Positions 14,832 to 29,106 of a DNA stretch of 64,000 nt are shown piece after piece. The translations under genes and the position numbers were made by a program. The notes beneath the pieces were generated by a model that saw nothing but the letters and a program-made list of their open reading frames with translations, was not told the origin of the DNA and ran no database searches. Each line of letters starts with the position of its first letter. Within the stretch, counting starts at the first letter, position 1. This DNA comes from an uncultured Caldithrix sp. (GTDB lineage: Bacteria; Calditrichota; Calditrichia; RBG-13-44-9): positions 53,385-117,384 of the forward strand of contig CAYWTB010000004.1 of the NCBI GenBank assembly GCA_964461135.1. Reading direction: 5' to 3'.

Positions 14832-16994
14832 ATGGAAAAACCGAATTCAGAGAAAAAAGGTGTAGGCAGTTTCCCTGCCATATTCTGGCTGGTGATCATT
14901 TTCGAGTTTTTTGAACGGGGATCTTATTATGGCATGATGAGCATTCTATCCGTATATCTTACCGAAAATCTGCACTTTGCCAAGGAGAGCGTAGGGATTA
15001 TTAAAGGTACCATTCAACCCCTGCTCTATTTTCTTCCCATAATCAGCGGTGCCCTGGCAGACCGTTTCGGGTACCGGAAAATGCTGATGATTGCTTTTTC
15101 CCTGCTGGGATTAGGATATTTTCTTACGGCACAGGCCACCAGTTACGCCCTGGTTTTCGGTGCCCTGGTAGTAATGGGCTTTGGAGCGGGAACCTTTAAA
15201 CCGATTATTTCCGGTTCCATCGCCAAAGTAACCGATGAAAAAAACAGTACACTTGGATTCGGAGTGTATTACTGGTCCATCAATCTGGGGGCTTTTCTGT
15301 TTCCCCTGATACTGGTTCCGATCCTGAAAAAAATGGACTGGACCTATGTAATTCTCGCCTCTGCCATCGGTACCGCCAGCATGCTGATACCCACCATCTT
15401 TTTTTATAAAGATCCGGTAAAACGGGAGAAGAAAACACAGGAAAGACAATTCAACATTATACAGACCCTGGCCAATGCGTTCGAAATAATCTACAGCCCG
15501 GTGGTATTGATTTACAATTCCATGAAAAAATCTGCAGCACGGAGAACCATCATTATTATGGTTCTGGCCATTCTTTTTCTTTACGCGATATACAGCTACC
15601 TCCAGGCTCCGGTGGCCAGCGAAAAATTTTCCACTGTGGGTGTTTTAAAGAATACCACCACCCTCATTTTCAAAGTGGACCGGAACATGCTGGCCCCGGA
15701 AGAATTTCGAATCAGGGTTCTCAATGCCGATTCATCCCGGGTGGCTCTCACAATTTATAAGCCACGCCAACTGGATCAGTTTGCACCGGTTCTTCATGAT
15801 TCATTGAAGGCATTTCCGGACCTGGCATTTCTCAATGAAAATGATATCAGGGACTTGATGAACCGTTCGGACCGCAAGGTGGAGTTATTATTTGTTCCGG
15901 GCAGCGGTAATGAGAAAAACTTCGAAATAAAACAAACCGGACCGGATCAGTTTCAGGTTGTTCTGAACAAACCGGAATCTTTTCAGAATTATCGATCAGA
16001 GGTATATATGAGCCTGGAACAATATCCGGTTCTGAGAGGACTGACTCCTGAAGACATCCAGAAACTTTACGCCGCCAGCAGAGGCAGATCTTTTTTCTTT
16101 CTGTATGTCATCGGGCTCATTATCGTGGCTCTGCTGGTGACCGCATACAGCCGCAGGAAGAACGGGAATGCCAAATCGTCAGACACTCGACCCTCCTACA
16201 AAATACCCTTTTTTATTGTCACGGCAGCCGGGCTGATTCTGTGGTTTCTGCCGGGATTAACGATTCTGGGACGGATTATTTCCTATGTGATATTTTTTAC
16301 CGTGACTTCTCTTTTTATTATTGATAAATCCGAACCGGCAAAATTCAGGGATCATGCCAAATTTCTGCTTATGATTTTCCTGTATTCGGGTTTCTGGATT
16401 CTGTATTTCCAGATGTTCGATTCAGTCCTGTGGTATGTTCAGGCCTATGTGAATGCAACTTCCCTTAATAATGCAGTAAATAGTTTTTTGGGAACGTTTG
16501 GTATTCATATCCAGTGGTTCTTTGATGTGGAACATGTAACCGTTATTAACGCCGGCACTATCATTCTGCTGCAGCTGCTCATTTCCAATATTGTAAAGCA
16601 CAGAAAGGCACTCCCGACAATGATTTCAGGTATCGGAATCGCCACCATCGGAATGGCCATTCTTGCTGTTTCCACCGATATATGGATCTTTGTGACGGGA
16701 ATTATTTTATTTTCTATCGGTGAAATGACGGCTCATCCTAAATTTATCAGTTATGTGGGTCTCATTGCCCCCTCCGATAAAAAGGCCATGTACATGGGTT
16801 ATCTGTTTCTTTATGGAGTATTCGGCAGTTCTATAGGGGGTATCATGGGAGCCAGGCTGTATGTTCATTTTGTGGATAATCTGAATCAGCCAAAGACGCT
16901 TTGGCTTATTTTCAGCGGTATCGGGGTGGCCACCATTCTGGCCTTGCTGATCTATAACAGGTTCCTGGCACCAGACAGTGAGACAAAAAACTGA
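14832..16994 (+). CDS. POT/PTR2 family proton-dependent oligopeptide transporter (MFS) with a ~170-aa soluble insert between the two transmembrane halves.
   Basis: POT signatures FEFFERGSYYGM and GALADRFGYRK are present. At 720 aa it is longer than typical bacterial POTs. A hydrophilic segment at roughly aa 260-430 sits between hydrophobic helices. Confidence 0.8.
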   Translation: MEKPNSEKKGVGSFPAIFWLVIIFEFFERGSYYGMMSILSVYLTENLHFAKESVGIIKGTIQPLLYFLPIISGALADRFGYRKMLMIAFSLLGLGYFLTAQATSYALVFGALVVMGFGAGTFKPIISGSIAKVTDEKNSTLGFGVYYWSINLGAFLFPLILVPILKKMDWTYVILASAIGTASMLIPTIFFYKDPVKREKKTQERQFNIIQTLANAFEIIYSPVVLIYNSMKKSAARRTIIIMVLAILFLYAIYSYLQAPVASEKFSTVGVLKNTTTLIFKVDRNMLAPEEFRIRVLNADSSRVALTIYKPRQLDQFAPVLHDSLKAFPDLAFLNENDIRDLMNRSDRKVELLFVPGSGNEKNFEIKQTGPDQFQVVLNKPESFQNYRSEVYMSLEQYPVLRGLTPEDIQKLYAASRGRSFFFLYVIGLIIVALLVTAYSRRKNGNAKSSDTRPSYKIPFFIVTAAGLILWFLPGLTILGRIISYVIFFTVTSLFIIDKSEPAKFRDHAKFLLMIFLYSGFWILYFQMFDSVLWYVQAYVNATSLNNAVNSFLGTFGIHIQWFFDVEHVTVINAGTIILLQLLISNIVKHRKALPTMISGIGIATIGMAILAVSTDIWIFVTGIILFSIGEMTAHPKFISYVGLIAPSDKKAMYMGYLFLYGVFGSSIGGIMGARLYVHFVDNLNQPKTLWLIFSGIGVATILALLIYNRFLAPDSETKN

Positions 16995-18387: not shown

Positions 18388-18837
18388 TTATTTATTGCCG
18401 GGATTTCCTTTGTGTTTCCGGTAAAGCTTTCTCAACCCGATGGCGGATTCCTTCCCGTCACAGATTCCATCTCCATCCGTATCAATGAATCTGTCCCGGG
18501 GAGGATTTTTCCCTTTGCGATAACCCTTTCCCCCCTGTTCCAGATGGTCATCAATACCATTGCCATTAGCATCGACAAAGCCTTCCAAGGGCTGTTCAGT
18601 TCCAGCCGGCTCTACCCCCTGCTGCTGGCCTTCCGGATTCTGCTGATCTTTCTGAACCTGTTCCCTTTCCTGTGCCTGTTTCTGCTTTTGTTCGCCGGTC
18701 TTTTTTTGTTGTTGCTCGGTCGACTTTGTCTTTACCTGCTCTTTTTTCTTTTCCGTTTTTGTGGAATCCGCATTCTGTCCCACAACACCTGATATTCCAA
18801 TGAACAGGCTCAGAATGATAATATAATAGTTTTTCAT
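18388..18837 (-). CDS. Secreted Q/K/E-rich low-complexity protein with two DxDxDG calcium-binding-like loops (paralog 1 of 3).
   Basis: Signal peptide MKNYYIIILSLFIGISGVVGQ, followed by KTEKKKEQVKTKSTEQQQKKTGEQKQKQAQEREQVQKDQQ. Loops are FVDANGNGIDDHLE and FIDTDGDGICDGKE. A 4-nt gap separates it from the upstream gene. Confidence 0.6.
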   Translation of the reverse strand: MKNYYIIILSLFIGISGVVGQNADSTKTEKKKEQVKTKSTEQQQKKTGEQKQKQAQEREQVQKDQQNPEGQQQGVEPAGTEQPLEGFVDANGNGIDDHLEQGGKGYRKGKNPPRDRFIDTDGDGICDGKESAIGLRKLYRKHKGNPGNK

Positions 18838-18841
18838 GGCT

Positions 18842-19678
18842 TTACTCCTCCGAAGAAATTTTTTCTCCCTTAATGACAGATATTATATCTACCGGAAGAA
18901 TATCATTTTGTTCGGCGATGTCTTTAATAAATTCATCTTTATTATATATTATTTTATGATTATCCAGTCTTTTTAAAGTTACCTGAACAGGGATTCCCAG
19001 TTCCGCCGCCACTTCTTCCACGGTTTTTCTACCATAACCGGTATACAGAGTTTTTTTGGCGTCATTATCGGAAACTCTCTGTATCAATTCGCTGGGAGAC
19101 GTATTATTCATCTCTGCCAGCTCCTCAATTGTGGTCGTGGAATCAACATGCTGAATCCCTTCATGTTTCAGGCTTTGCAAAAGATTCTCCATATTGGTGC
19201 CGGTTTTCTGAGCATATTGAGACAGGGTAAGCAGTTCCGCATGAGGAATGGGTGGTTCGCTTGACGGATTGCTCCAGGAATTGCTCAGATATTCTCCAAA
19301 ATCCATTACAGTCTGAAAGGGGGGAACCTGCAGAATCATTAGAACCAGTATGGTTACAGTCAAGAATGAAGATAAGGCCAGTTCCTGCTTCATTTTAATA
19401 CCCGCCTGGAGTTTCGATTTCAGATAGCTCCAGAAAACTATCCAGTTATAATATAAATGAAATGCACCCACGATGATAAATGCCAGGGCAAAAACAGTAT
19501 GGACAGCCTGCCAGCCGGTTTTGGTTAATCCCATAAACCTCCAGATCACCCAGTTTGCTACCCGTCCTGGAGGTGAGAAATAAAGAACTATACCGGTAAG
19601 AATTAAAATCAGCCAGGCGAAAACCACCATAAAACTGAAAAACGCTTTCCTATTGAATTTAGCCGGACGCATCATCAT
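18842..19678 (-). CDS. Inner-membrane protein with an N-terminal 4-TM DUF4405-like domain (conserved His in helices) and a C-terminal soluble helical domain.
   Basis: N-terminal hydrophobic helices with AVHTVFALAFIIVGAFHLYYNW. The C-terminal ~140 aa is hydrophilic. The family assignment is from memory and was not verified. Confidence 0.5.
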   Translation of the reverse strand: MMMRPAKFNRKAFFSFMVVFAWLILILTGIVLYFSPPGRVANWVIWRFMGLTKTGWQAVHTVFALAFIIVGAFHLYYNWIVFWSYLKSKLQAGIKMKQELALSSFLTVTILVLMILQVPPFQTVMDFGEYLSNSWSNPSSEPPIPHAELLTLSQYAQKTGTNMENLLQSLKHEGIQHVDSTTTIEELAEMNNTSPSELIQRVSDNDAKKTLYTGYGRKTVEEVAAELGIPVQVTLKRLDNHKIIYNKDEFIKDIAEQNDILPVDIISVIKGEKISSEE

Positions 19679-19686
19679 TCTACCTC

Positions 19687-20895
19687 TTACATATCCAGTT
19701 GCAGTCCCAGCGAAACAAACTGGCTGTCATAATTATACCAGTAGCTGTTGGAGCTGTTATTCATCCATTGATAATTCATCTGCAGAGCCAGGCTGGTGGA
19801 TGCCGTCAGTGGCAGATCCAAACGCTTTTCCAAGGTAATCCGGAACGTTCTGAGCGTATCTTTACGAAGAACCGTTTCATCAAAGTTTTCCGCATCCACA
19901 TAAATACCCTGCATCACATAGTTCTTCCGGTGATAATACCCGGCCAGCCTGGCGGACATTCTGAAAGGAAGCAGTTGAGTCAGTTCCACTCCAAATATTT
20001 GCGCTTCATAACCCATCATATCATCAAAAATCTGTGACTCAGTGGCATACCCGGGAAGCAGGCCGGCAATATTACGGTCATAGTTTAACAGATTAATGCG
20101 CTGATGATATTGAAATGCAAGGCCGCTGTATTTCATAAGCGACTGCGCCATACGCAGTGACAACACAATCTGCGCAGACGATGGTGTTTCTCCGGAAGAC
20201 GAATAGATGTAATATCCACTTCCGGGGCCATGATCATTGCCCGGACCACCTCCACCCTGTTCCACGCTGCTCACGGACTGCAGAATTCCCATAGATGAAT
20301 CTGCGGGAAGCGCAGGCGAAACCTCGGGTTCCAGGTAATATTTATAATTAAACGTGACTGCCCCGATAATGGTTGATCGCATCGGAAAGGATCGGTGTAA
20401 TGAGGTATAAGCACTTAAAAGAATATTGTTCAGATTTGTTAACTGCAGGAAGCGGTTCATTGACCCATTGGCTCCTAATCGCCAGGTGAAATTGTCTACC
20501 TGTTCGTTATGGTTAAAACCGGCACGCAAAGTTATGTAATCATAAAGATTATATTCCGGACGATCGATTCTGTTTTCCGCAGAAATACTCCAGCTGGTTT
20601 TCTCTCCACCTCCCAGATGAAACTGGTGCCAGTATAGATTCCGGCCGGGATTCTGGTAGTAGTTCATGAAACTTCCGTAGTACTGCATGGATACTTTCTC
20701 CCAGTCTTTCTGGAACCCCATGGCAATTCGTGTAATCTGATCCTCCTGGGATTCAGGATATCCGAATGGATTGGAATTATATTCCTGTTCCAGGTAGAGT
20801 GAATAATACCACTGGCCGTATGCAGAACAGACGGTTAAAATTAAAGTAAAAATGATGAGAGCGGGTATGAAGATGATGTTTTTACTTCCGTCCAT
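19687..20895 (-). CDS. Putative outer-membrane beta-barrel protein (porin-like).
   Basis: Signal peptide MDGSKNIIFIPALIIFTLILTVCSAYGQ. The body shows alternating aromatic/hydrophilic beta-strand patterns rich in Y/N/S/G, and the C-terminus is ...YNYDSQFVSLGLQLDM. No recognizable enzyme motifs. Confidence 0.45.
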   Translation of the reverse strand: MDGSKNIIFIPALIIFTLILTVCSAYGQWYYSLYLEQEYNSNPFGYPESQEDQITRIAMGFQKDWEKVSMQYYGSFMNYYQNPGRNLYWHQFHLGGGEKTSWSISAENRIDRPEYNLYDYITLRAGFNHNEQVDNFTWRLGANGSMNRFLQLTNLNNILLSAYTSLHRSFPMRSTIIGAVTFNYKYYLEPEVSPALPADSSMGILQSVSSVEQGGGGPGNDHGPGSGYYIYSSSGETPSSAQIVLSLRMAQSLMKYSGLAFQYHQRINLLNYDRNIAGLLPGYATESQIFDDMMGYEAQIFGVELTQLLPFRMSARLAGYYHRKNYVMQGIYVDAENFDETVLRKDTLRTFRITLEKRLDLPLTASTSLALQMNYQWMNNSSNSYWYNYDSQFVSLGLQLDM

Positions 20896-20920: not shown

Positions 20921-20950
20921 CAGCGCTCTTCCTTTATGGGAAGAGCGCTT
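20921..20950 (-). terminator. Intra-operon hairpin or attenuator between paralog 2 and the beta-barrel gene.
   Basis: AGCGCTCTTCC tttat GGGAAGAGCGCT: an 11-bp perfect stem. On the minus-strand RNA it is followed by CAUAUUAUUCG, which is only moderately U-rich. Confidence 0.35.
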
Positions 20951-20967: not shown

Positions 20968-21504
20968 TCATCTACGTGGACCTCTGTTTGTTTTTCCTTT
21001 TGGTCCGGTTCCGTCACAATTTCCTGAAGCCGCTCCGGTTCCATACCCCATTCCGTTCTGAGGGCAGACACCCCGGTTACCGGTGCCATCACCGGGACCA
21101 TAACCACCCCTGCGGGTTTTATGTATGGCAGAGGCTTTTCCTTGGCCCTGATTCATATTATCGGCTATACCATCACCGTCTGTATCCACAAACTGCTGCT
21201 GGCGTTTACCCTTACCGGCTCCCTGGTAATCGGGATCCTGGCCGTTGGGAATACCATCCTTGTCATGATCCGGCGCGTTATCATTAAAACCATCGCCGTT
21301 CTTATCAACAAAGTTCGGTCCGTGGATTACCCGGTTCTGCTCAGTGTTTTGAGTAGTTCCCTGGTTCTGATTCTGATCCTTCAGCTGGAGTTCCTGATTT
21401 GTTTTTTCTTTCTGCTTGCTGGAATTGTCCTGGGCCCTGCTGATCCCTGCGGTCAGAGACAGGGACAGAAATACAACGAAAACGAACAGATATAACCTTT
21501 TCAT
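20968..21504 (-). CDS. Secreted Q/N-rich low-complexity protein with DxDxDG loops and a Gly-rich GYGPGDGTGN tail (paralog 2 of 3).
   Basis: Signal peptide MKRLYLFVFVVFLSLSLTAGISRAQ. Loops are FVDKNGDGFNDNAPDHDKDGIPNGQDPD and FVDTDGDGIADN. The tail is RGGYGPGDGTGNRGV...GYGTGAASGNCDGTGPKG. Confidence 0.6.
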   Translation of the reverse strand: MKRLYLFVFVVFLSLSLTAGISRAQDNSSKQKEKTNQELQLKDQNQNQGTTQNTEQNRVIHGPNFVDKNGDGFNDNAPDHDKDGIPNGQDPDYQGAGKGKRQQQFVDTDGDGIADNMNQGQGKASAIHKTRRGGYGPGDGTGNRGVCPQNGMGYGTGAASGNCDGTGPKGKTNRGPRR

Positions 21505-21562
21505 TTTTTATTCTCCTTATTATGTTTTGTTATCAGGTTTTCGTTCATTTGTTATATTTCTT

Positions 21563-21579
21563 TACAAACCTCGTGCCAG
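21563..21579 (-). promoter_or_regulatory. Candidate sigma-54 (-24/-12) promoter for paralog 2.
   Basis: The minus strand reads cc TGGCACG aggt TTGTA aa (GG at -24; TTGT rather than TTGC at -12). The -12 element lies about 62 nt upstream of the start codon at 21504, adjacent to a sigma-54 activator gene. Confidence 0.45.
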
Positions 21580-22117
21580 GATTAGTAATAATTTTTAAGT
21601 TTATAATAATAATAGACTTGTAAATTTTATTAACCTGACGTCGGAGACTTGTCTTCGCCCGGTTGGTCGTATAAATCGACCTGCCAGTCGATACCCAAGT
21701 GTTCGGGTCAATTTTCTGATAAATTCCGCCTGAAAATAGGATTCTTCGCATTAATACGTGACTGCTAAACTTACCTGATCTCCTGAGAAAACATGTCAGC
21801 GCTGCCTGCTGTCAGGCAGGTACGCGGTGGTTTTGGCATTTCGACTCTTAACGATCCTTTACACCTCCCACCCTAAGTGGTTGGGTTAGTAATGAATTAA
21901 AGAAAACCTTGCTCAATTACTAATCCCGGCAGGGATGAAATGTTTAAAGAAAAGATAGAATCGAAAGACATGAACTCTGCAGGAGTGATATATGAAATCC
22001 TTTCAGAATATTTTGTTTGGGTATTCATTATTATGAAGTACCGAAAATATGAAACTAACAGATAACTATACTTACATGATATAACACTGTTTCGCTATAA
22101 TTCAGTACTGGAATTAC

Positions 22118-23482
22118 CTACTTTAATCCCAGTTTTTCCAGCCGTGAGCGGAGGTGTCTCTCCGTTATTCCCAACAGGCGCGCCGCTGCACTTTGATTTC
22201 CCCGTGTCTGTTCCAGGGCTGAACCAATCATCTCCTTTTCAAAGGCCCGCACTTTGTCTTCATAACCATCCCCATAATTATAGGGATCCAGTACCTTTTT
22301 TTCGGTTGGCGGCTGAGTATGGCCCGGCAGGTCCGTCATGGAAATGATATTGGTGCGACTAAGAACCACTGCCCGTTCCAGAATATTTTCCAGTTCCCGG
22401 ACATTTCCGGGAAAATCATATTTCATCAGACGGTCCAGGGCCTCACCCGATATGCCCTTCATTTCCTTCTGATTTTCGCTGCTGTATTTGTTTATAAAAT
22501 GTTCGGCCAGAACCGGAATATCCGTTTTTCGCTGGCGAAGAGGCGGCACAAAAATAGTGACCACATTCAGACGGTAATACAGATCATCCCTGAATTCACC
22601 CAGGTGCATCTTATCTTCCAGCTGGCGATGGGTGGCGGCAATAATGCGGACGTCCACTTTGATAGGGGCCGAGCTTCCAACCCGTTCTATTTCACCAAAT
22701 TGTATGGCCCGCAACAGTTTTATTTGGATAGGAAGAGGAATATCACCTACTTCATCGATGAAAAGGGTACCGCCATTCGCCTGCTCAAAACGCCCGATCC
22801 GCTGTTGTGAAGCACCGGTGAAAGCCCCTTTTTCGTGCCCGAAAAGTTCCGATTCAATTAAATTCTCCGATAACGCCGCTATATTTACAACCACAAACGG
22901 TTTGTCCTTACGAGGACTGGAGTAATGAATAGCCCTGGCAATCAGCTCTTTTCCGGTACCGCTTTCTCCGCGGATAAGCACCGAAGCTTTACTGTTGGCC
23001 ACCCTGCCGGCAGTATTAAGGACATTCTCCATCTCCCCGCTTTGAGAAATGATAGACTCAAACTTAAATTTCGCTTCCAGTTGCTCGCGGAGTTGCTTGT
23101 TTTCTTCCATCAACAGCCGTTTTTCTTTGACCCTCTCAATCAGGTTTTCCAGTTCATTCAGATCTATTGGTTTGCTGAGATAATCATATGCGCCTGCTTT
23201 CATTAATTCCACTGCATCTTCAATACTCCCGTACGCGGTTATCACTACCACATCGATTTCAGGATTTAATTCCTTTATTTTGCGTAAAACCACCAGTCCG
23301 TTCCAACCCGGCATGCGGTAATCAGTAAGTACCAGATCTATAAAATGTTTCCGGGCTATCTTAAACCCCTCTTCACCATTAACTGCAGTATATACCTGAT
23401 AATCCCGGCGTTCCAGGTAGCTTTTCAGGGCTTTCAGCTGCGTTTCCTCGTCATCGATTAATAGCAAGGTAAAAGGTCTCAT
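22118..23482 (-). CDS. Sigma-54-dependent response regulator (NtrC/ZraR/AtoC family): REC, AAA+ sigma-54 interaction domain and Fis-type HTH.
   Basis: The receiver region is MRPFTLLLIDDEE...DLVLTDYRMPGWNG. GESGTGKELIARAIHYSS is the Walker A, and the GAFTGA motif is present as EKGAFTGA. The C-terminal HTH is QSAAARLLGITERHLRSRLEKLGL. Confidence 0.9.
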   Translation of the reverse strand: MRPFTLLLIDDEETQLKALKSYLERRDYQVYTAVNGEEGFKIARKHFIDLVLTDYRMPGWNGLVVLRKIKELNPEIDVVVITAYGSIEDAVELMKAGAYDYLSKPIDLNELENLIERVKEKRLLMEENKQLREQLEAKFKFESIISQSGEMENVLNTAGRVANSKASVLIRGESGTGKELIARAIHYSSPRKDKPFVVVNIAALSENLIESELFGHEKGAFTGASQQRIGRFEQANGGTLFIDEVGDIPLPIQIKLLRAIQFGEIERVGSSAPIKVDVRIIAATHRQLEDKMHLGEFRDDLYYRLNVVTIFVPPLRQRKTDIPVLAEHFINKYSSENQKEMKGISGEALDRLMKYDFPGNVRELENILERAVVLSRTNIISMTDLPGHTQPPTEKKVLDPYNYGDGYEDKVRAFEKEMIGSALEQTRGNQSAAARLLGITERHLRSRLEKLGLK

Positions 23483-23581: not shown

Positions 23582-25624
23582 TTAATTTCTGATTCCGTTT
23601 AAGATTTTCCCGGGTATTTGTATGGAAAATTGTGTTCCCTGTCCTTCCCTGCTTTCCAGGAAAATAGTGCCATTGTGTTGATCAACAATTTGCTGAACAA
23701 TACTTAACCCGATGCCGGTTCCGCTATCTTTGGTGGTGAAATAAATATTGAATATTTTTTTCTGTATATCTTCCGGGATTCCCGGACCATCATCAGCCAC
23801 ATTCATTTCAATGAAGTCCCTTTTTGTTTTTCTGATGTGGATATCGATGCGTCCACCGGAATTCAAGGCCTCCATGGCATTCTGAATCAGGTTTGTGAAA
23901 ACCTGTTTCATTTTGCGGCGGTCCCATTCCACCGTTTCCGACCACTCCGAATCTATGTGAAGACTGATATTCTTTGTTTCCAGTAATGGCTGATATTGTT
24001 TTTGCAATTCGTCGAAAAAATCCTGCAGCGAAAAAACCTCTGTTTGCAACGGCTCAGGCCGGGCAAATCTCAGGAAATTTTCTATGGTTTGGTTAATCCG
24101 TTTCACTTCATTATAGACCATGCGGGAAAGTTGATGATATTCGTCCTGTTGCCGGCGAGGTTCAAAATCCCTGTCCAGTTGCTGGATGACGGTTCCGATG
24201 GCATTGAGGGGGTTACGTATCTCATGAGCCACACCGGATGCCAGCTGGCCCAGTGCTGTTAACCGTTCCCGTCTCTGAATCTGCCCTTCCAGCCGTTTCT
24301 GATCGGTCAGATCCCGTGCCACCAGAATATATACCAGCTGATTATTCTCATCCGTATAATGACTCTTTGACATTAAAATATGCCTGGTTTTTCCTTTAAT
24401 TGTCATCGGAAACTCCTGCATGCTGAAGCGATCATCCAGGATATGTAGCCAGTTCATGCCAGGGAAAACGCTCCTGATTTCCTTTCCCACCACTTCATCA
24501 GCTTTTAGTTCGAATAATTTTTCGGCGGATTGATTGACGATTCTGATTTTCTCTCCCGATTCGAAGACAATAATCGCATCACTCACGTTTTGGATAATAT
24601 TGCGGGAATAGGTTTCCACAGACTGGTACTGTTTCCGGGTAAAATCGAGATTTTGCCTCATCATTATGAAAGTGAACATGAAAAAACCGATTACCAGCAG
24701 CAGAAGGCTGATGATTGTGATGCGGCGATATATACGGCTGTTGATCACAGTAAGAGGTGCCATTGAAATACCCAGCCTGAATATGCCGACCGGCTCTCCC
24801 TGATAGTTGAAAGAATGAACGGCTTCAAAAACTTCCTGCCCTTTAAAATCAAGGGTACGAACACGTAAAACGGAGTCAGATAAAGCTTTACTGAGAAACG
24901 GTGAAGTATTAATCCGTTCCAGGTCCACTATATTTCCGGAGGCGGCGAGAATGCCGGAGGTATCCTGAATGGCTGCATACAGGATTCCGGGATTCCCGCT
25001 AAGGCTTTGAAGAAGGCTGCCAATCCCCACCTCCTTGCGAAATTCCAGCAGCTGCGCCGCATTCAGGTTAACGACTATGGCACTTTGGGCTTTTCCGGCC
25101 ACCGCCACTGCATAGCGGAAGCCCTTTTCATAGCGTGCCGCCTTTAATCCCAGCAACAAAGTATCCGTCTTTCCGGTGAATATGGGTGTTAAAATGTCTT
25201 CCGGTTCATTCCCGGATTCGGAATAATTGTGTATCTGCTGATGACTGCTGTATATCTTTTTTCCATCGGGTGTAAAAATATTTATCCTGTACAGATTATT
25301 TTCGCGGGCAAACTTCTGCAGGAAGGCATTACTGACCCGACCTTTGTTATAGAGATCTTTTACCATATTGGCATTATTTAAAAGTCTTTCATCAATAAGC
25401 TCTTCAATCAACATATTTGTCATCAGCGTATTGCGGGAGGCACTGATGACTGTTTCCGATAAAGTATGTGCCTGTTCAGTCATGAGTTCAACCAGCTCTT
25501 TCTTGCTCTGGCGTAATTCTATAATAGCCGAACTGATCATCAGGGCTGCCAGTACCAGGAATATGAATAACAAATTTTTAGGACGTATGAACTGTGCCTG
25601 TCTGAAGATTCTTTTCATGATCAT
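23582..25624 (-). CDS. Membrane sensor histidine kinase: two TM helices flanking a ~270-aa periplasmic domain, then PAS, HisKA and HATPase_c.
   Basis: TM1 is LLFIFLVLAALMISSAII and TM2 is ITIISLLLLVIGFFMFTFIMM. The H-box is GVAHEIRNPLNAI, and the ATPase region contains DDGPGIPEDI...GTGIGLSIV. Confidence 0.85.
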   Translation of the reverse strand: MIMKRIFRQAQFIRPKNLLFIFLVLAALMISSAIIELRQSKKELVELMTEQAHTLSETVISASRNTLMTNMLIEELIDERLLNNANMVKDLYNKGRVSNAFLQKFARENNLYRINIFTPDGKKIYSSHQQIHNYSESGNEPEDILTPIFTGKTDTLLLGLKAARYEKGFRYAVAVAGKAQSAIVVNLNAAQLLEFRKEVGIGSLLQSLSGNPGILYAAIQDTSGILAASGNIVDLERINTSPFLSKALSDSVLRVRTLDFKGQEVFEAVHSFNYQGEPVGIFRLGISMAPLTVINSRIYRRITIISLLLLVIGFFMFTFIMMRQNLDFTRKQYQSVETYSRNIIQNVSDAIIVFESGEKIRIVNQSAEKLFELKADEVVGKEIRSVFPGMNWLHILDDRFSMQEFPMTIKGKTRHILMSKSHYTDENNQLVYILVARDLTDQKRLEGQIQRRERLTALGQLASGVAHEIRNPLNAIGTVIQQLDRDFEPRRQQDEYHQLSRMVYNEVKRINQTIENFLRFARPEPLQTEVFSLQDFFDELQKQYQPLLETKNISLHIDSEWSETVEWDRRKMKQVFTNLIQNAMEALNSGGRIDIHIRKTKRDFIEMNVADDGPGIPEDIQKKIFNIYFTTKDSGTGIGLSIVQQIVDQHNGTIFLESREGQGTQFSIQIPGKILNGIRN

Positions 25625-25736
25625 AAATTACATTATCCATTTATGCAGGGCAAGATTTCAATAAAGTCTGAAGTGATTTCATACCTGTATCGAACAGTCG
25701 TCTTAACTTCAATACTAAAATTGAATTATTAAATGG

Positions 25737-25796: not shown

Positions 25797-26426
25797 TTAT
25801 TTCCCGCCGGTGGATCCGCCATTGCGATTCTGGGTTTTGGAACCGCCTGAAGGGGTACCACTACCCAGACCATAACCGGTACCATCCTTCGGTCCTACAC
25901 CCTGGTTACCGGTGCCGTCACCGGGTCCGTATCCGCCTTTTCTGGTACCCTGGGTGGAACCCGGACCATAGCCGGTTTCATCCTTGGGACCAACGCCCTG
26001 GTTGCCGGTGCCATCTCCGGGACCATAGTGCCCGGCTGCATTATCATTGCCCTTCAGCGAACGGAGTTGAAAGCGGTCATCTATTCCGTCGCCATTCATA
26101 TCCCGGAACTGGAAACGGTATTCAAAACGATTCTGGAACATGTTCTGACTCATGGAGGCTGCCCCGGACTGGTTTTTTATCCGGATCTGGTTGCTGGTGC
26201 TTGATTGCAGCTTGTTCTGATATTGGGTCTGATTCTGCTGCTGCACTTTCGGCTGGTCCTGTGCCTGATTTTTTGTCTGATTCTGGACCTGGTTGTGAAG
26301 CTGTGCTTTGGTTTGGGTCTTCGCCTGGGTCTTGGTTCTTGTTTTCAGTGAGTCCTGTGCAAATGCCTGCAGACTGAAAGCAAGGGTTAATCCCAGGATC
26401 AGAGTGAATTGAGAGATGCGTTTCAT
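25797..26426 (-). CDS. Secreted Q/N/T/K-rich low-complexity protein with a DxDxDG loop and tandem GYGPGDGTGNQGVGPKD repeats (paralog 3 of 3).
   Basis: The likely true start is MKRISQFTLILGLTLAFSLQAFAQ at 26426, preceded by aaGGAGGaagtatc ATG. The loop is FRDMNGDGIDDRF. The repeat tail is HYGPGDGTGNQGVGPKDETGYGPGS...GGYGPGDGTGNQGVGPKDGTGYGLGSG. Confidence 0.6.
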   Translation of the reverse strand: MKRISQFTLILGLTLAFSLQAFAQDSLKTRTKTQAKTQTKAQLHNQVQNQTKNQAQDQPKVQQQNQTQYQNKLQSSTSNQIRIKNQSGAASMSQNMFQNRFEYRFQFRDMNGDGIDDRFQLRSLKGNDNAAGHYGPGDGTGNQGVGPKDETGYGPGSTQGTRKGGYGPGDGTGNQGVGPKDGTGYGLGSGTPSGGSKTQNRNGGSTGGK

Positions 26427-26475: not shown

Positions 26476-26492
26476 CTCAATTGTCGTGCCAA
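26476..26492 (-). promoter_or_regulatory. Candidate sigma-54 (-24/-12) promoter for paralog 3.
   Basis: The minus strand reads t TGGCACG acaa TTGAG gcaa. The -12 element lies about 52 nt upstream of the start at 26426. It has the same TGGCACG-N4-TTG architecture as the site upstream of paralog 2. Confidence 0.4.
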
Positions 26493-26695
26493 TGGAGAAC
26501 CAGACCTTGCTTATATGATGTTTATATTAGACTTATAACGATGATGTGCAGAGATGAAGGTACTTACTGCTCGACCGGACGGGCGAATTACGCCAACCGG
26601 ATGGGCGGATATTTCGTGGAAGCAGCGTGACGGATAAATTTAAAAATGAGTGCCGGCATCCAGCAACAAAAGATTTCCCTGGCAGAGATGTAATT

Positions 26696-27600: not shown

Positions 27601-29106
27601 CTATCCCTTAATTACGCCCAGAGGCTTCAGGCGTGCCACTTTACAGCTGATGCCGGCTTTATGCATAACCTCCACTACATCTGCCACATCTTTATAAGCC
27701 TGTGGCATTTCTCCCGCAATGGTTTTCATACCTTTTGCCCGTATTATAACGCCACGCCTTTTAAGTTCCTGGACAAGATTTCGTCCCTTTCCGGCTTTTA
27801 AAGCCTGGGTACGACTCTGGACGCGTCCCGCTCCATGACAGGTGCTGCCAAAGGTATCCTTCATGGCCTGATTGGTCCCCACAGCCACGAACGAATATCG
27901 TCCCATGTCTCCCGGCACCAGCACCGGTTGACCCACTTCCCGGTATTTTTGAGGTATTTCTGAATTCTGCGGGGGAAATGCGCGGGTGGCTCCCTTGCGG
28001 TGCACACACACTTTTTTTCTACTGCCATCTATATCATGCTCTTCAATCTTGGCCACATTATGGCAGACATCATAGACCAGCCGGAAACCGAAGTCATCAG
28101 AGGACATATTAAACATTTTTAACATGGTTCTACGGGTGATCGCCATAATAATCTGCCGGTTGTTCCAGGCAAAATTGGCCGCCGCCGCCATGGCACCCAG
28201 GTAATCCCTGCCTTCCGGTGACTGAACAGGCGCACAGGCCAGTTGCCTGTCGGGAAGCATTATCCCGTATCTGGGAATGGCTTTTACCAGGATCTTCAGA
28301 TAATCATCGCAAACCTGGTACCCCAGGCCACGTGATCCGGTATGAATAGAAATGGTAAGCTGCCCCGGGAATAATCCAAAAATTCCGGCAATTTCCTCAT
28401 CATACACTTCATCCACCATCTGCACCTCCAGGAAATGATTCCCTGAACCGAGTGTACCGGCCTGATCCTGTCCCCGCTCAATGGCACGGGAGCTGACTGC
28501 CTCCGGATCAGCCTGTTTCAAACAGCCGTTTTCTTCAGTAAACAGCAGATCCTCTTCCTCCCCGAAATCATTTTCCACAGCCCAGCCCGCTCCCTTCAGA
28601 AGAATTTGTTTAATCTCCCCGGGAGATAATTTCCGGATGGCTCCGGATGATCCAACGCCGGTGGGGATATTATGGAAAAGGGTTTCGACCAGCTTTTGCA
28701 TTTGGGGTTCCACCTGCCGGGCATGCAGATTTGTACGGATCAGCCTGACGCCGCAATTAATATCATATCCCACACCTCCGGGTGAGACCACTCCATTCTG
28801 TACATCGGTGGCAGCCACACCGCCGATCGGGAAACCATATCCCCAGTGTATGTCGGGCATGGCAAGGCTGTATTTCTGAATTCCGGGAAGATGAGCCACA
28901 TTAACTACCTGTTTAATGCTTTCATCATTTTGCAGGTATTTCTCTATCATTTTGCGGGAACTGTAAATGCGGCCGGGAACCCTCATTCCTCCCTGTGCCG
29001 GAATTTCCCATAAATAGTCATGGATGGGATGCAATTCATAACCGCTCACATGCATTATCGTTTCCCCTGTATATTTGAACAACTTCCCTTTGCTGTTAAT
29101 TGACAA
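27601..29106 (-). CDS. rtcB: RNA-splicing ligase RtcB (3'-phosphate/5'-OH RNA ligase).
   Basis: Full-length with RtcB hallmark segments, including ...HTGSRGLGYQV and GSTCHGAGR (metal and GTP ligands). Confidence 0.9.
   Translation of the reverse strand: MSINSKGKLFKYTGETIMHVSGYELHPIHDYLWEIPAQGGMRVPGRIYSSRKMIEKYLQNDESIKQVVNVAHLPGIQKYSLAMPDIHWGYGFPIGGVAATDVQNGVVSPGGVGYDINCGVRLIRTNLHARQVEPQMQKLVETLFHNIPTGVGSSGAIRKLSPGEIKQILLKGAGWAVENDFGEEEDLLFTEENGCLKQADPEAVSSRAIERGQDQAGTLGSGNHFLEVQMVDEVYDEEIAGIFGLFPGQLTISIHTGSRGLGYQVCDDYLKILVKAIPRYGIMLPDRQLACAPVQSPEGRDYLGAMAAAANFAWNNRQIIMAITRRTMLKMFNMSSDDFGFRLVYDVCHNVAKIEEHDIDGSRKKVCVHRKGATRAFPPQNSEIPQKYREVGQPVLVPGDMGRYSFVAVGTNQAMKDTFGSTCHGAGRVQSRTQALKAGKGRNLVQELKRRGVIIRAKGMKTIAGEMPQAYKDVADVVEVMHKAGISCKVARLKPLGVIKG

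Follow-up and report, generated by a model that had tools for sequence, protein, structure and literature searches.

A probable sigma-54 promoter with two putative upstream activator dyads ahead of an envelope gene cluster in an uncultured Caldithrix sp.

Results

A conserved -24/-12 element ahead of a gene for a small secreted protein

The -24/-12 element described here is very probably a functional sigma-54 (RpoN) promoter and would be activated, through two dyads, by the neighbouring two-component regulator. The first-pass annotation had read the element as a sigma-54-type promoter on the basis of the 64-kb stretch of DNA analysed here (hereafter the window). That reading is supported by the adjacent gene for an activator with a GAFTGA motif, by conservation of the element in ten loci and by dyads at -110.5 and -131.5. 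The core element, the predicted start and the first gene are as follows.

21564-21578, minus strand: sigma-54 core promoter TGGCACGAGGTTTGT, read directly, with GG at -25/-24 and GT at -13/-12.
21552, minus strand: predicted transcription start (A), counted from G(-24) at 21576, with a 5' UTR of about 48 nt.
20968-21504, minus strand: 178-aa secreted protein ('paralog 2') with a signal peptide, a Q/K-rich tract, D-x-D-G-D-G loops and a Gly-rich tail.

Around the element the minus strand reads ccTGGCACGAGGTTTGTAaa. TGGCAC extends from 21578 to 21573, with its GG at 21577-21576, and TTGT from 21567 to 21564, with its G at 21565 and its T at 21564. Exactly ten bases separate the GG from the GT, which bears out the canonical 10-nt spacing claimed for the two dinucleotides. 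In a test against the consensus TGGCAC-N5-TTGC, nine of the ten specified bases were matched and the spacing was exact. The start at 21552 is placed by the standard -24/-12 geometry of sigma-54 promoters. The element does lie upstream of the ATG at 21504, but the distance from the -12 T to the A of this ATG is 60 nt, not about 62 as first given. A Shine-Dalgarno sequence, AAGGAG, precedes the ATG at 21517-21512. Both the orientation and the distance to the gene fit a sigma-54 promoter, as 60 nt compares with a range of 30 to 70 nt in the promoter family described below.

Promoter positions -37 to -22 (21574-21589, ATTACTAATCCTGGCA) have a 15/16 inverted copy 326 nt upstream, at 21916-21931, and ATTACTAACCC at 21883-21893 belongs to a further, 12-bp inverted repeat with a 22-nt spacer. 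These repeats are kept in no related locus and may be the remnant of a local duplication or inversion.

The element recurs at the same place in related loci

For the 402-aa protein encoded downstream of the 178-aa protein, the protein database contains 36 relatives, none of them named. A scan with one genome per species yielded 66 loci, in metagenome-assembled genomes (MAGs) labelled Calditrichota, KSB1, Ignavibacteriales/Melioribacteraceae, Bacteroidota and a few others. Genes for the kinase, the regulator, the 178-aa family, the beta-barrel protein and the DUF4405 protein recur together across the 66 loci, in variable order.

In 709 kb of related loci together with the window, TGGCAC-N5-TTGN occurs 59 times, versus 0 to 6 times at the other spacings from N2 to N9, and TGGCAT-N5-TTGN shows the same peak at N5. 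The spacing-specific enrichment is 10- to 30-fold, a count that includes in part orthologous copies of the same promoters, so that the events are not all independent. The family sites sit 30 to 70 nt 5' of Shine-Dalgarno sequences and start codons of cluster genes. Such a site lies within 200 nt upstream of 30 of the 53 genes in the 178-aa family, a frequency to be set against 1.5% for random 230-nt segments, and orthologs of the 178-aa protein are found 3' of the same promoter type. No such site was found upstream of the kinase and regulator genes or of neighbouring Cys/Met-enzyme genes in the related loci.

The element keeps its orthologous position in ten loci (L002, L004, L005, L007, L008, L009, L011, L012, L016 and L017). 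Its distance to the barrel gene is 674 to 752 nt among them (990 nt in L012) and 683 nt in the window, and protein identity in these ten loci is only 33 to 54%. Anchored alignment of the orthologous loci revealed no further conserved blocks in the flanking intergenic DNA. Three loci are exceptions: the site is masked by N in L003 and cut by the contig end in L006, and L010 has no -24/-12 element though the pair of dyads described in the next section is kept there. In this KSB1 locus (L010:270-340) no more than some 20 to 40 nt separate the tandem dyads, TTCGCCCGCAGGAGCAGA and TTCGCCCGCCCGGTCATT, from the ribosome-binding site of the gene for the small protein, as would be expected if some 90 bp had been lost or misassembled.

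Tandem dyads lie at fixed distances upstream of the promoters

Alignment of the intergenic regions of close loci brought out a recurring 18-bp dyad, TTCGMC-N6-GKCGAA, often present in tandem at a distance of 21 to 22 bp. Matches to at least 11 of its 12 specified positions number 75 at the N6 spacing versus 2 to 6 at other spacings between N2 and N10. Such a dyad is found within -400 to +100 of the predicted start at 74 of 99 promoter-like sites. The positions of the dyad centres show two sharp peaks, one at -110 to -113 (41 in the -120 bin) and one at -131.5. Upstream of the promoter in the window we found the following elements.

21654-21671: proximal activator dyad, reading TACGACCAACCGGGCGAA on the minus strand, 11/12 match, centre at -110.5, a candidate upstream activating sequence.
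21675-21692: distal activator dyad ATCGACTGGCAGGTCGAT, 10/12 match, centre at -131.5, 21 bp from the proximal one, also a candidate upstream activating sequence.
21579-21653, minus strand: AT-rich spacer between the dyads and the -24 element, presumed to be a bending or looping segment.

The tandem arrangement with 21 to 22 bp between dyads is also present in L004, L008, L053, L055, L061, L063 and others. Only two dyads with at least 11 of 12 matches are present in the whole 64-kb window, and the second (26587-26570) goes with a sister promoter that serves a paralog of the 178-aa protein.

26477-26491, minus strand: sister sigma-54 promoter TGGCACGACAATTGA, serving 'paralog 1'.
26570-26587: activator dyad of the sister promoter TTCGCCCGTCCGGTCGAG, 11/12 match, centre at -113.5.
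25797-26426, minus strand: 209-aa paralog of the small secreted protein ('paralog 1'), immediately 5' of the kinase gene.

At -110.5 and -131.5, the putative activator sites fall in the range of about 80 to 150 bp expected for them. The first pass had pointed to about 520 bp of non-coding DNA as room for enhancers. The room is there, and amounts to 538 bp up to the regulator stop at 22118, but the candidate sites are not spread throughout it: the dyads occupy 21654-21692. We rejected the remaining 420 bp or so (21693-22117) as an enhancer region, because it has no similarity to the related loci or to the rest of the window. It contains short open reading frames only, of at most 43 aa and none obviously a gene, and the spacer length varies from 222 to more than 800 bp in orthologous loci. 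ATTACTAAYCC repeats were likewise rejected as activator sites, as they are not conserved elsewhere, unlike the TTCGAC dyads. A search of the whole window against Rfam gave no match at gathering thresholds, and a permissive search of 21400-22200 returned just a chance snoRNA match (E value, 0.25).

Among 68 family promoters, AT content is 70 to 81% from -86 to -27 compared with about 62% further upstream. For the spacer at 21579-21653 we claim AT-richness alone; no IHF consensus, WATCAA-N4-TTR, was seen in it by eye. This AT-rich DNA also holds a weak sigma-70-like match, TTAATA-16-TATTAT (9/12), at 21633-21606, and a search for terminators gave none between the regulator gene and the promoter. 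The 178-aa gene might accordingly owe most of its transcription to a housekeeping-sigma promoter or to polymerase reading through from the regulator gene, with the -24/-12 match contributing little. We consider this highly improbable: sigma-70-like matches are at chance level (4 versus 2.9 expected from shuffles), the one in question lies in AT-rich DNA, and the conservation of the -24/-12 element together with dyads at a fixed distance across phyla would be left unexplained.

Family context separates the element from chance matches

By its raw count alone, the motif does not stand apart from chance: the window holds 6 one-mismatch matches to the consensus versus 3.4 +/- 2.0 expected, and 6 or more are found in 13 of 100 shuffles. 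Scoring with a position weight matrix had been proposed as a check, and as the generic matrix we used one made from the sequences of 18 validated E. coli promoters (PMC2831329). This check did not by itself separate the site from chance: the site scores 12.1 bits and ranks 7th of about 128,000 positions, amid chance hits. In leave-one-out scoring, true E. coli promoters range from -2.6 to 21.2 bits, which includes the score of the site. The top match, at 16359, is antisense inside a transporter gene and scores comparably to the site under study. A matrix derived from the related loci gives a different ranking. It places a site at 62725 first (23.0 bits), the one at 21578 second (19.3 bits) and the sister promoter third (18.1 bits), and the best other site in the window scores 13.0 bits.

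A functionless chance match would be in keeping with the surplus of one-mismatch matches being this small and with in-gene sites such as that at 16359 scoring comparably under the E. coli matrix. This reading is extremely improbable, given the orthologous position shared by ten loci, the 10- to 30-fold enrichment specific to one spacing and the presence of two dyads at exactly -110.5 and -131.5. Judged in context, with the related-loci matrix and with two dyads at family-typical distances, the element is far beyond chance.

The -12 base is typical of the promoter family

The first-pass annotation had noted C to T in the -12 GC as the only departure from TGGCAC-N5-TTGC. It is indeed the sole mismatch, but the word 'departure' does not hold within the family, whose consensus is TTG(A/T), with C a minority base. 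At TGGCAC-N5-TTGN sites the base after TTG is A in 31 cases, T in 18, C in 5 and G in 5. To avoid circularity, a second tally was anchored only on the upstream dyad and TGGCA. In that tally, T is found at -15 in 64 of 69 sites, T at -14 in 64 of 69 and G at -13 in 54 of 69, and position -12 is A in 24, T in 25, C in 12 and G in 8. The validated E. coli pspA promoter, TGGCACGCAAATTGT, carries the same TTGT (PMC2831329, Table 1). As A and T are the commonest bases at this position in the family and TTGT occurs in validated pspA, the TTGT of the window is typical of its family and not a defect. Generic consensus or matrix scoring would under-rate the site and misjudge its -12 T. Nearly all other sites in the DNA examined come from one regulon; the single independent one, at 62725-62711, also has TTGT.

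In proteobacteria, the -12 C helps to lock the closed complex. Read tentatively, TTG(A/T) may mean that the sigma-54 of these lineages does not read a -12 C.

An NtrC-family regulator and its kinase are encoded next to the promoter

Directly upstream of the promoter, on the same strand, is the gene for the proposed activator, followed further upstream by that for a sensor kinase.

22118-23482, minus strand: response regulator and sigma-54 enhancer-binding protein with a receiver domain, an AAA+ domain with GAFTGA and a Fis-type HTH (HTH_8); the proposed activator.
23582-25624, minus strand: sensor histidine kinase with two transmembrane segments, a periplasmic domain of about 270 aa, and PAS, HisKA and HATPase domains.

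The regulator matches the Pfam family Sigma54_activat with an E value of 1e-71, and its motifs are intact, namely ESELFGHEKGAFTGA, which contains GAFTGA, and the Walker A sequence GESGTGKE. It scores below the NCBIfam equivalog cut-offs for AtoC (486 versus 714 bits), NtrC (454 versus 559) and ZraR (445 versus 760), and its closest solved relatives are NtrC4 and NtrC1 of Aquifex and ZraR. It is thus an NtrC-family protein by domain architecture and not an ortholog of AtoC, NtrC or ZraR. A Pfam search of 30 open reading frames, most of the long ones in the 64-kb window, gave no sigma-54 match, i.e., no rpoN; the presence of sigma-54 is inferred from the activator gene alone. A sigma-70-like match, TTGAAA-18-GATAAT (10/12), lies at 25632-25661 (minus strand), just 5' of the histidine kinase start, and is a candidate constitutive promoter for the kinase and regulator genes.

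The regulator gene is linked to the cluster in most loci, and orthologs of the kinase adjoin the regulator in related loci. Across 51 loci the recognition helix of the regulator, E-R-H-L-R-S-R, hardly varies, just as the dyad half-sites are invariant across phyla, and we count this in favor of binding of the dyads by the regulator. That pairing is a prediction, and the gene order around the regulator varies among loci, both of which leave room for another arrangement, in which the promoter is a real sigma-54 promoter activated by an enhancer-binding protein encoded elsewhere, the dyads being bound by some other factor. We regard such an arrangement as improbable, because the genes for the kinase and the regulator accompany the cluster in most of the 66 loci, across several phyla, because the regulator's recognition helix is as invariant as the dyad, and because no second sigma-54 activator was found among the open reading frames of the window searched with Pfam. 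The preferred candidate for binding at the two dyads is the adjacent regulator.

Genes downstream of the promoter

The genes that follow the 178-aa gene, and the hairpin that separates them from it, are listed here in the direction of transcription.

20922-20949, minus strand: GC-rich hairpin with an 11-bp stem, between the 178-aa gene and the barrel gene.
19687-20895, minus strand: 402-aa outer-membrane beta-barrel protein (AlphaFold pLDDT 81, all-beta).
18842-19678, minus strand: 278-aa DUF4405 membrane protein (Pfam PF14358, E value 2e-15), of a haem-b cytochrome family.
18388-18837, minus strand: 149-aa paralog of the 178-aa protein, the last gene of the unit, syntenic in close loci.

In sequence searches of Pfam, NCBIfam and PDB, nothing above threshold was found for the 178-, 209-, 149- and 402-aa proteins. 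A Foldseek search with the model of the 402-aa protein retrieved porins, Occ channels and AlgE, with E values down to 3e-9.

All nine of the close orthologous loci that were examined also have a strong hairpin at this position, and the one at 20922-20949 is a probable partial terminator or attenuator. Its conservation suggests that the small protein is highly expressed and that read-through is partial. With the family matrix, no sigma-54 site was found for the barrel gene itself in the window, and its expression probably depends on such read-through; full termination at the hairpin could leave the downstream genes without a known promoter. In distant loci, each gene has its own promoter and dyad.

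The same combination of promoter and dyad also precedes genes for a multihaem cytochrome c of about 455 aa (CxxCH) and a DUF2202 ferritin-like lipoprotein of about 227 aa, both absent from the window (L014:7415, L027:8065, L039:5027, L065:4167, L021 [minus strand] 4787 and others). Binding of haem b was shown for one purified DUF4405 protein, from an Oscillospiraceae bacterium, and the ferrosome protein FezC is a relative of this family (PMC11334425). DUF4405 and DUF2202 genes co-occur in ferrosome clusters (bioRxiv 10.1101/2020.01.10.902569). With DUF4405, DUF2202 and multihaem cytochrome c among the targets, it is reasonable to infer that the regulon may serve an envelope metal, iron or redox function.

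Other sites in the window

The third sigma-54-type site, TGGCACGTGATTTGT at 62711-62725 (minus strand), has the best family-matrix score in the window; no TTCGAC dyad is found near it. A small open reading frame with W-x-x-G-x-W repeats (62360-62671, minus strand) follows about 40 nt downstream. This frame has an in-frame TGA at codon 16, in the signal-peptide region (MIKRIIMFLLTVLPV, then the stop, then SVTMEVGC...), which could be a mark of a pseudogene, a sequencing error or recoding.

After the 209-aa gene, at about 25767-25738, a stem-loop followed by a T run looks terminator-like by eye; the automated scan did not list it. At the gene for an RtcB RNA ligase (27601-29106, minus strand) no -24/-12 site can be recognised, and RtcR is not encoded in the window. 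In E. coli, rtcB is sigma-54 dependent.

Discussion

We propose the following sequence of events at the promoter. RNA polymerase with sigma-54 would sit on TGGCACGAGGTTTGT as a closed complex that is unable to open unaided. The kinase (23582-25624) would sense a periplasmic signal, for which our guess is envelope metal, iron or redox stress, and phosphorylate the regulator (22118-23482). The phosphorylated regulator would oligomerise on the two dyads centred 110.5 and 131.5 bp 5' of the start, the AT-rich spacer would loop, and the GAFTGA loop of the regulator, with ATP hydrolysis, would open the promoter. Transcription is predicted to begin near 21552 and to produce a 48-nt leader followed by the coding sequence of the 178-aa protein. 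The hairpin would then stop part of the transcripts, and the rest would read into the genes for the barrel protein, the DUF4405 cytochrome b and the 149-aa paralog.

The kind of promoter is itself ordinary, a textbook case of a two-component sigma-54 activator encoded beside its target. A broader proposal is that the more than 60 co-evolving promoters define an undescribed regulon of Calditrichota, KSB1, Ignavibacteriales/Melioribacteraceae and Bacteroidota MAGs, with one dedicated kinase-activator pair, tandem TTCGAC-N6-GTCGAA enhancers at -110 and -131, and TTG(A/T) at -12. Its targets would be the genes for the small D-x-D-G-D-G secreted proteins, the outer-membrane barrel, the DUF4405 cytochrome b, the DUF2202 ferritin-like lipoprotein and the multihaem cytochrome c, a set that suggests an envelope iron or redox module. 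We put this forward tentatively, as a possibility that is on balance doubtful. In the literature that we searched we found no description of sigma-54 in Calditrichota, of a TTCGAC-N6-GTCGAA activator site or of such a regulon.

The analysis provides a base-by-base regulatory map, with the core, the predicted start, two putative activator sites and a probable attenuator hairpin, for a gene cluster about whose function little is known, in phyla that are hard to study. The conserved dyad motif permits prediction of the whole regulon in any genome of these groups. A response to envelope metal or redox conditions is testable in the cultured Caldithrix abyssi (locus L065) and Melioribacter roseus (L026).

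Three known systems resemble the one proposed here in different respects. The core of the E. coli pspA promoter is nearly identical to that of the window, including the -12 T (TGGCACGCAAATTGT versus TGGCACGAGGTTTGT; PMC2831329), and both promoters control envelope-related gene sets. However, PspF, the activator of pspA, lacks a receiver domain and is under the control of PspA, whereas the regulator of the window would be controlled by a kinase. The activator sites and target proteins of PspF are also unrelated to those of the window.

At glnAp2 of E. coli, NtrC, a receiver-AAA+-HTH protein, acts from two adjacent dyads about two helical turns apart, located about 110 to 140 bp upstream of the start, by DNA looping. 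The NtrB/NtrC system thus has the same type of activator and the same tandem dyad geometry as the promoter in the window, for which these traits are read from sequence. The half-sites differ, TTCGAC-N6-GTCGAA in the window as opposed to TGCACC-N5-GGTGCA for NtrC, and so do the targets, which are envelope proteins in the window and nitrogen assimilation genes for NtrC at glnAp2.

The ZraS/ZraR-zraP system of enterobacteria, a zinc-responsive system for envelope stress, likewise combines a periplasm-sensing kinase and a sigma-54 regulator with an adjacent gene for a small periplasmic protein, whose -24/-12 promoter they activate. Among the named relatives of the regulator and kinase, ZraR and ZraS score near the top, yet the scores are far below the cut-offs (445 versus 760 and 191 versus 479 bits, respectively). 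The small proteins of the window are not homologs of ZraP, and the genes are co-directional there but divergent in Zra. The outer-membrane barrel and the DUF4405 cytochrome are additional components of the window cluster relative to the Zra system.
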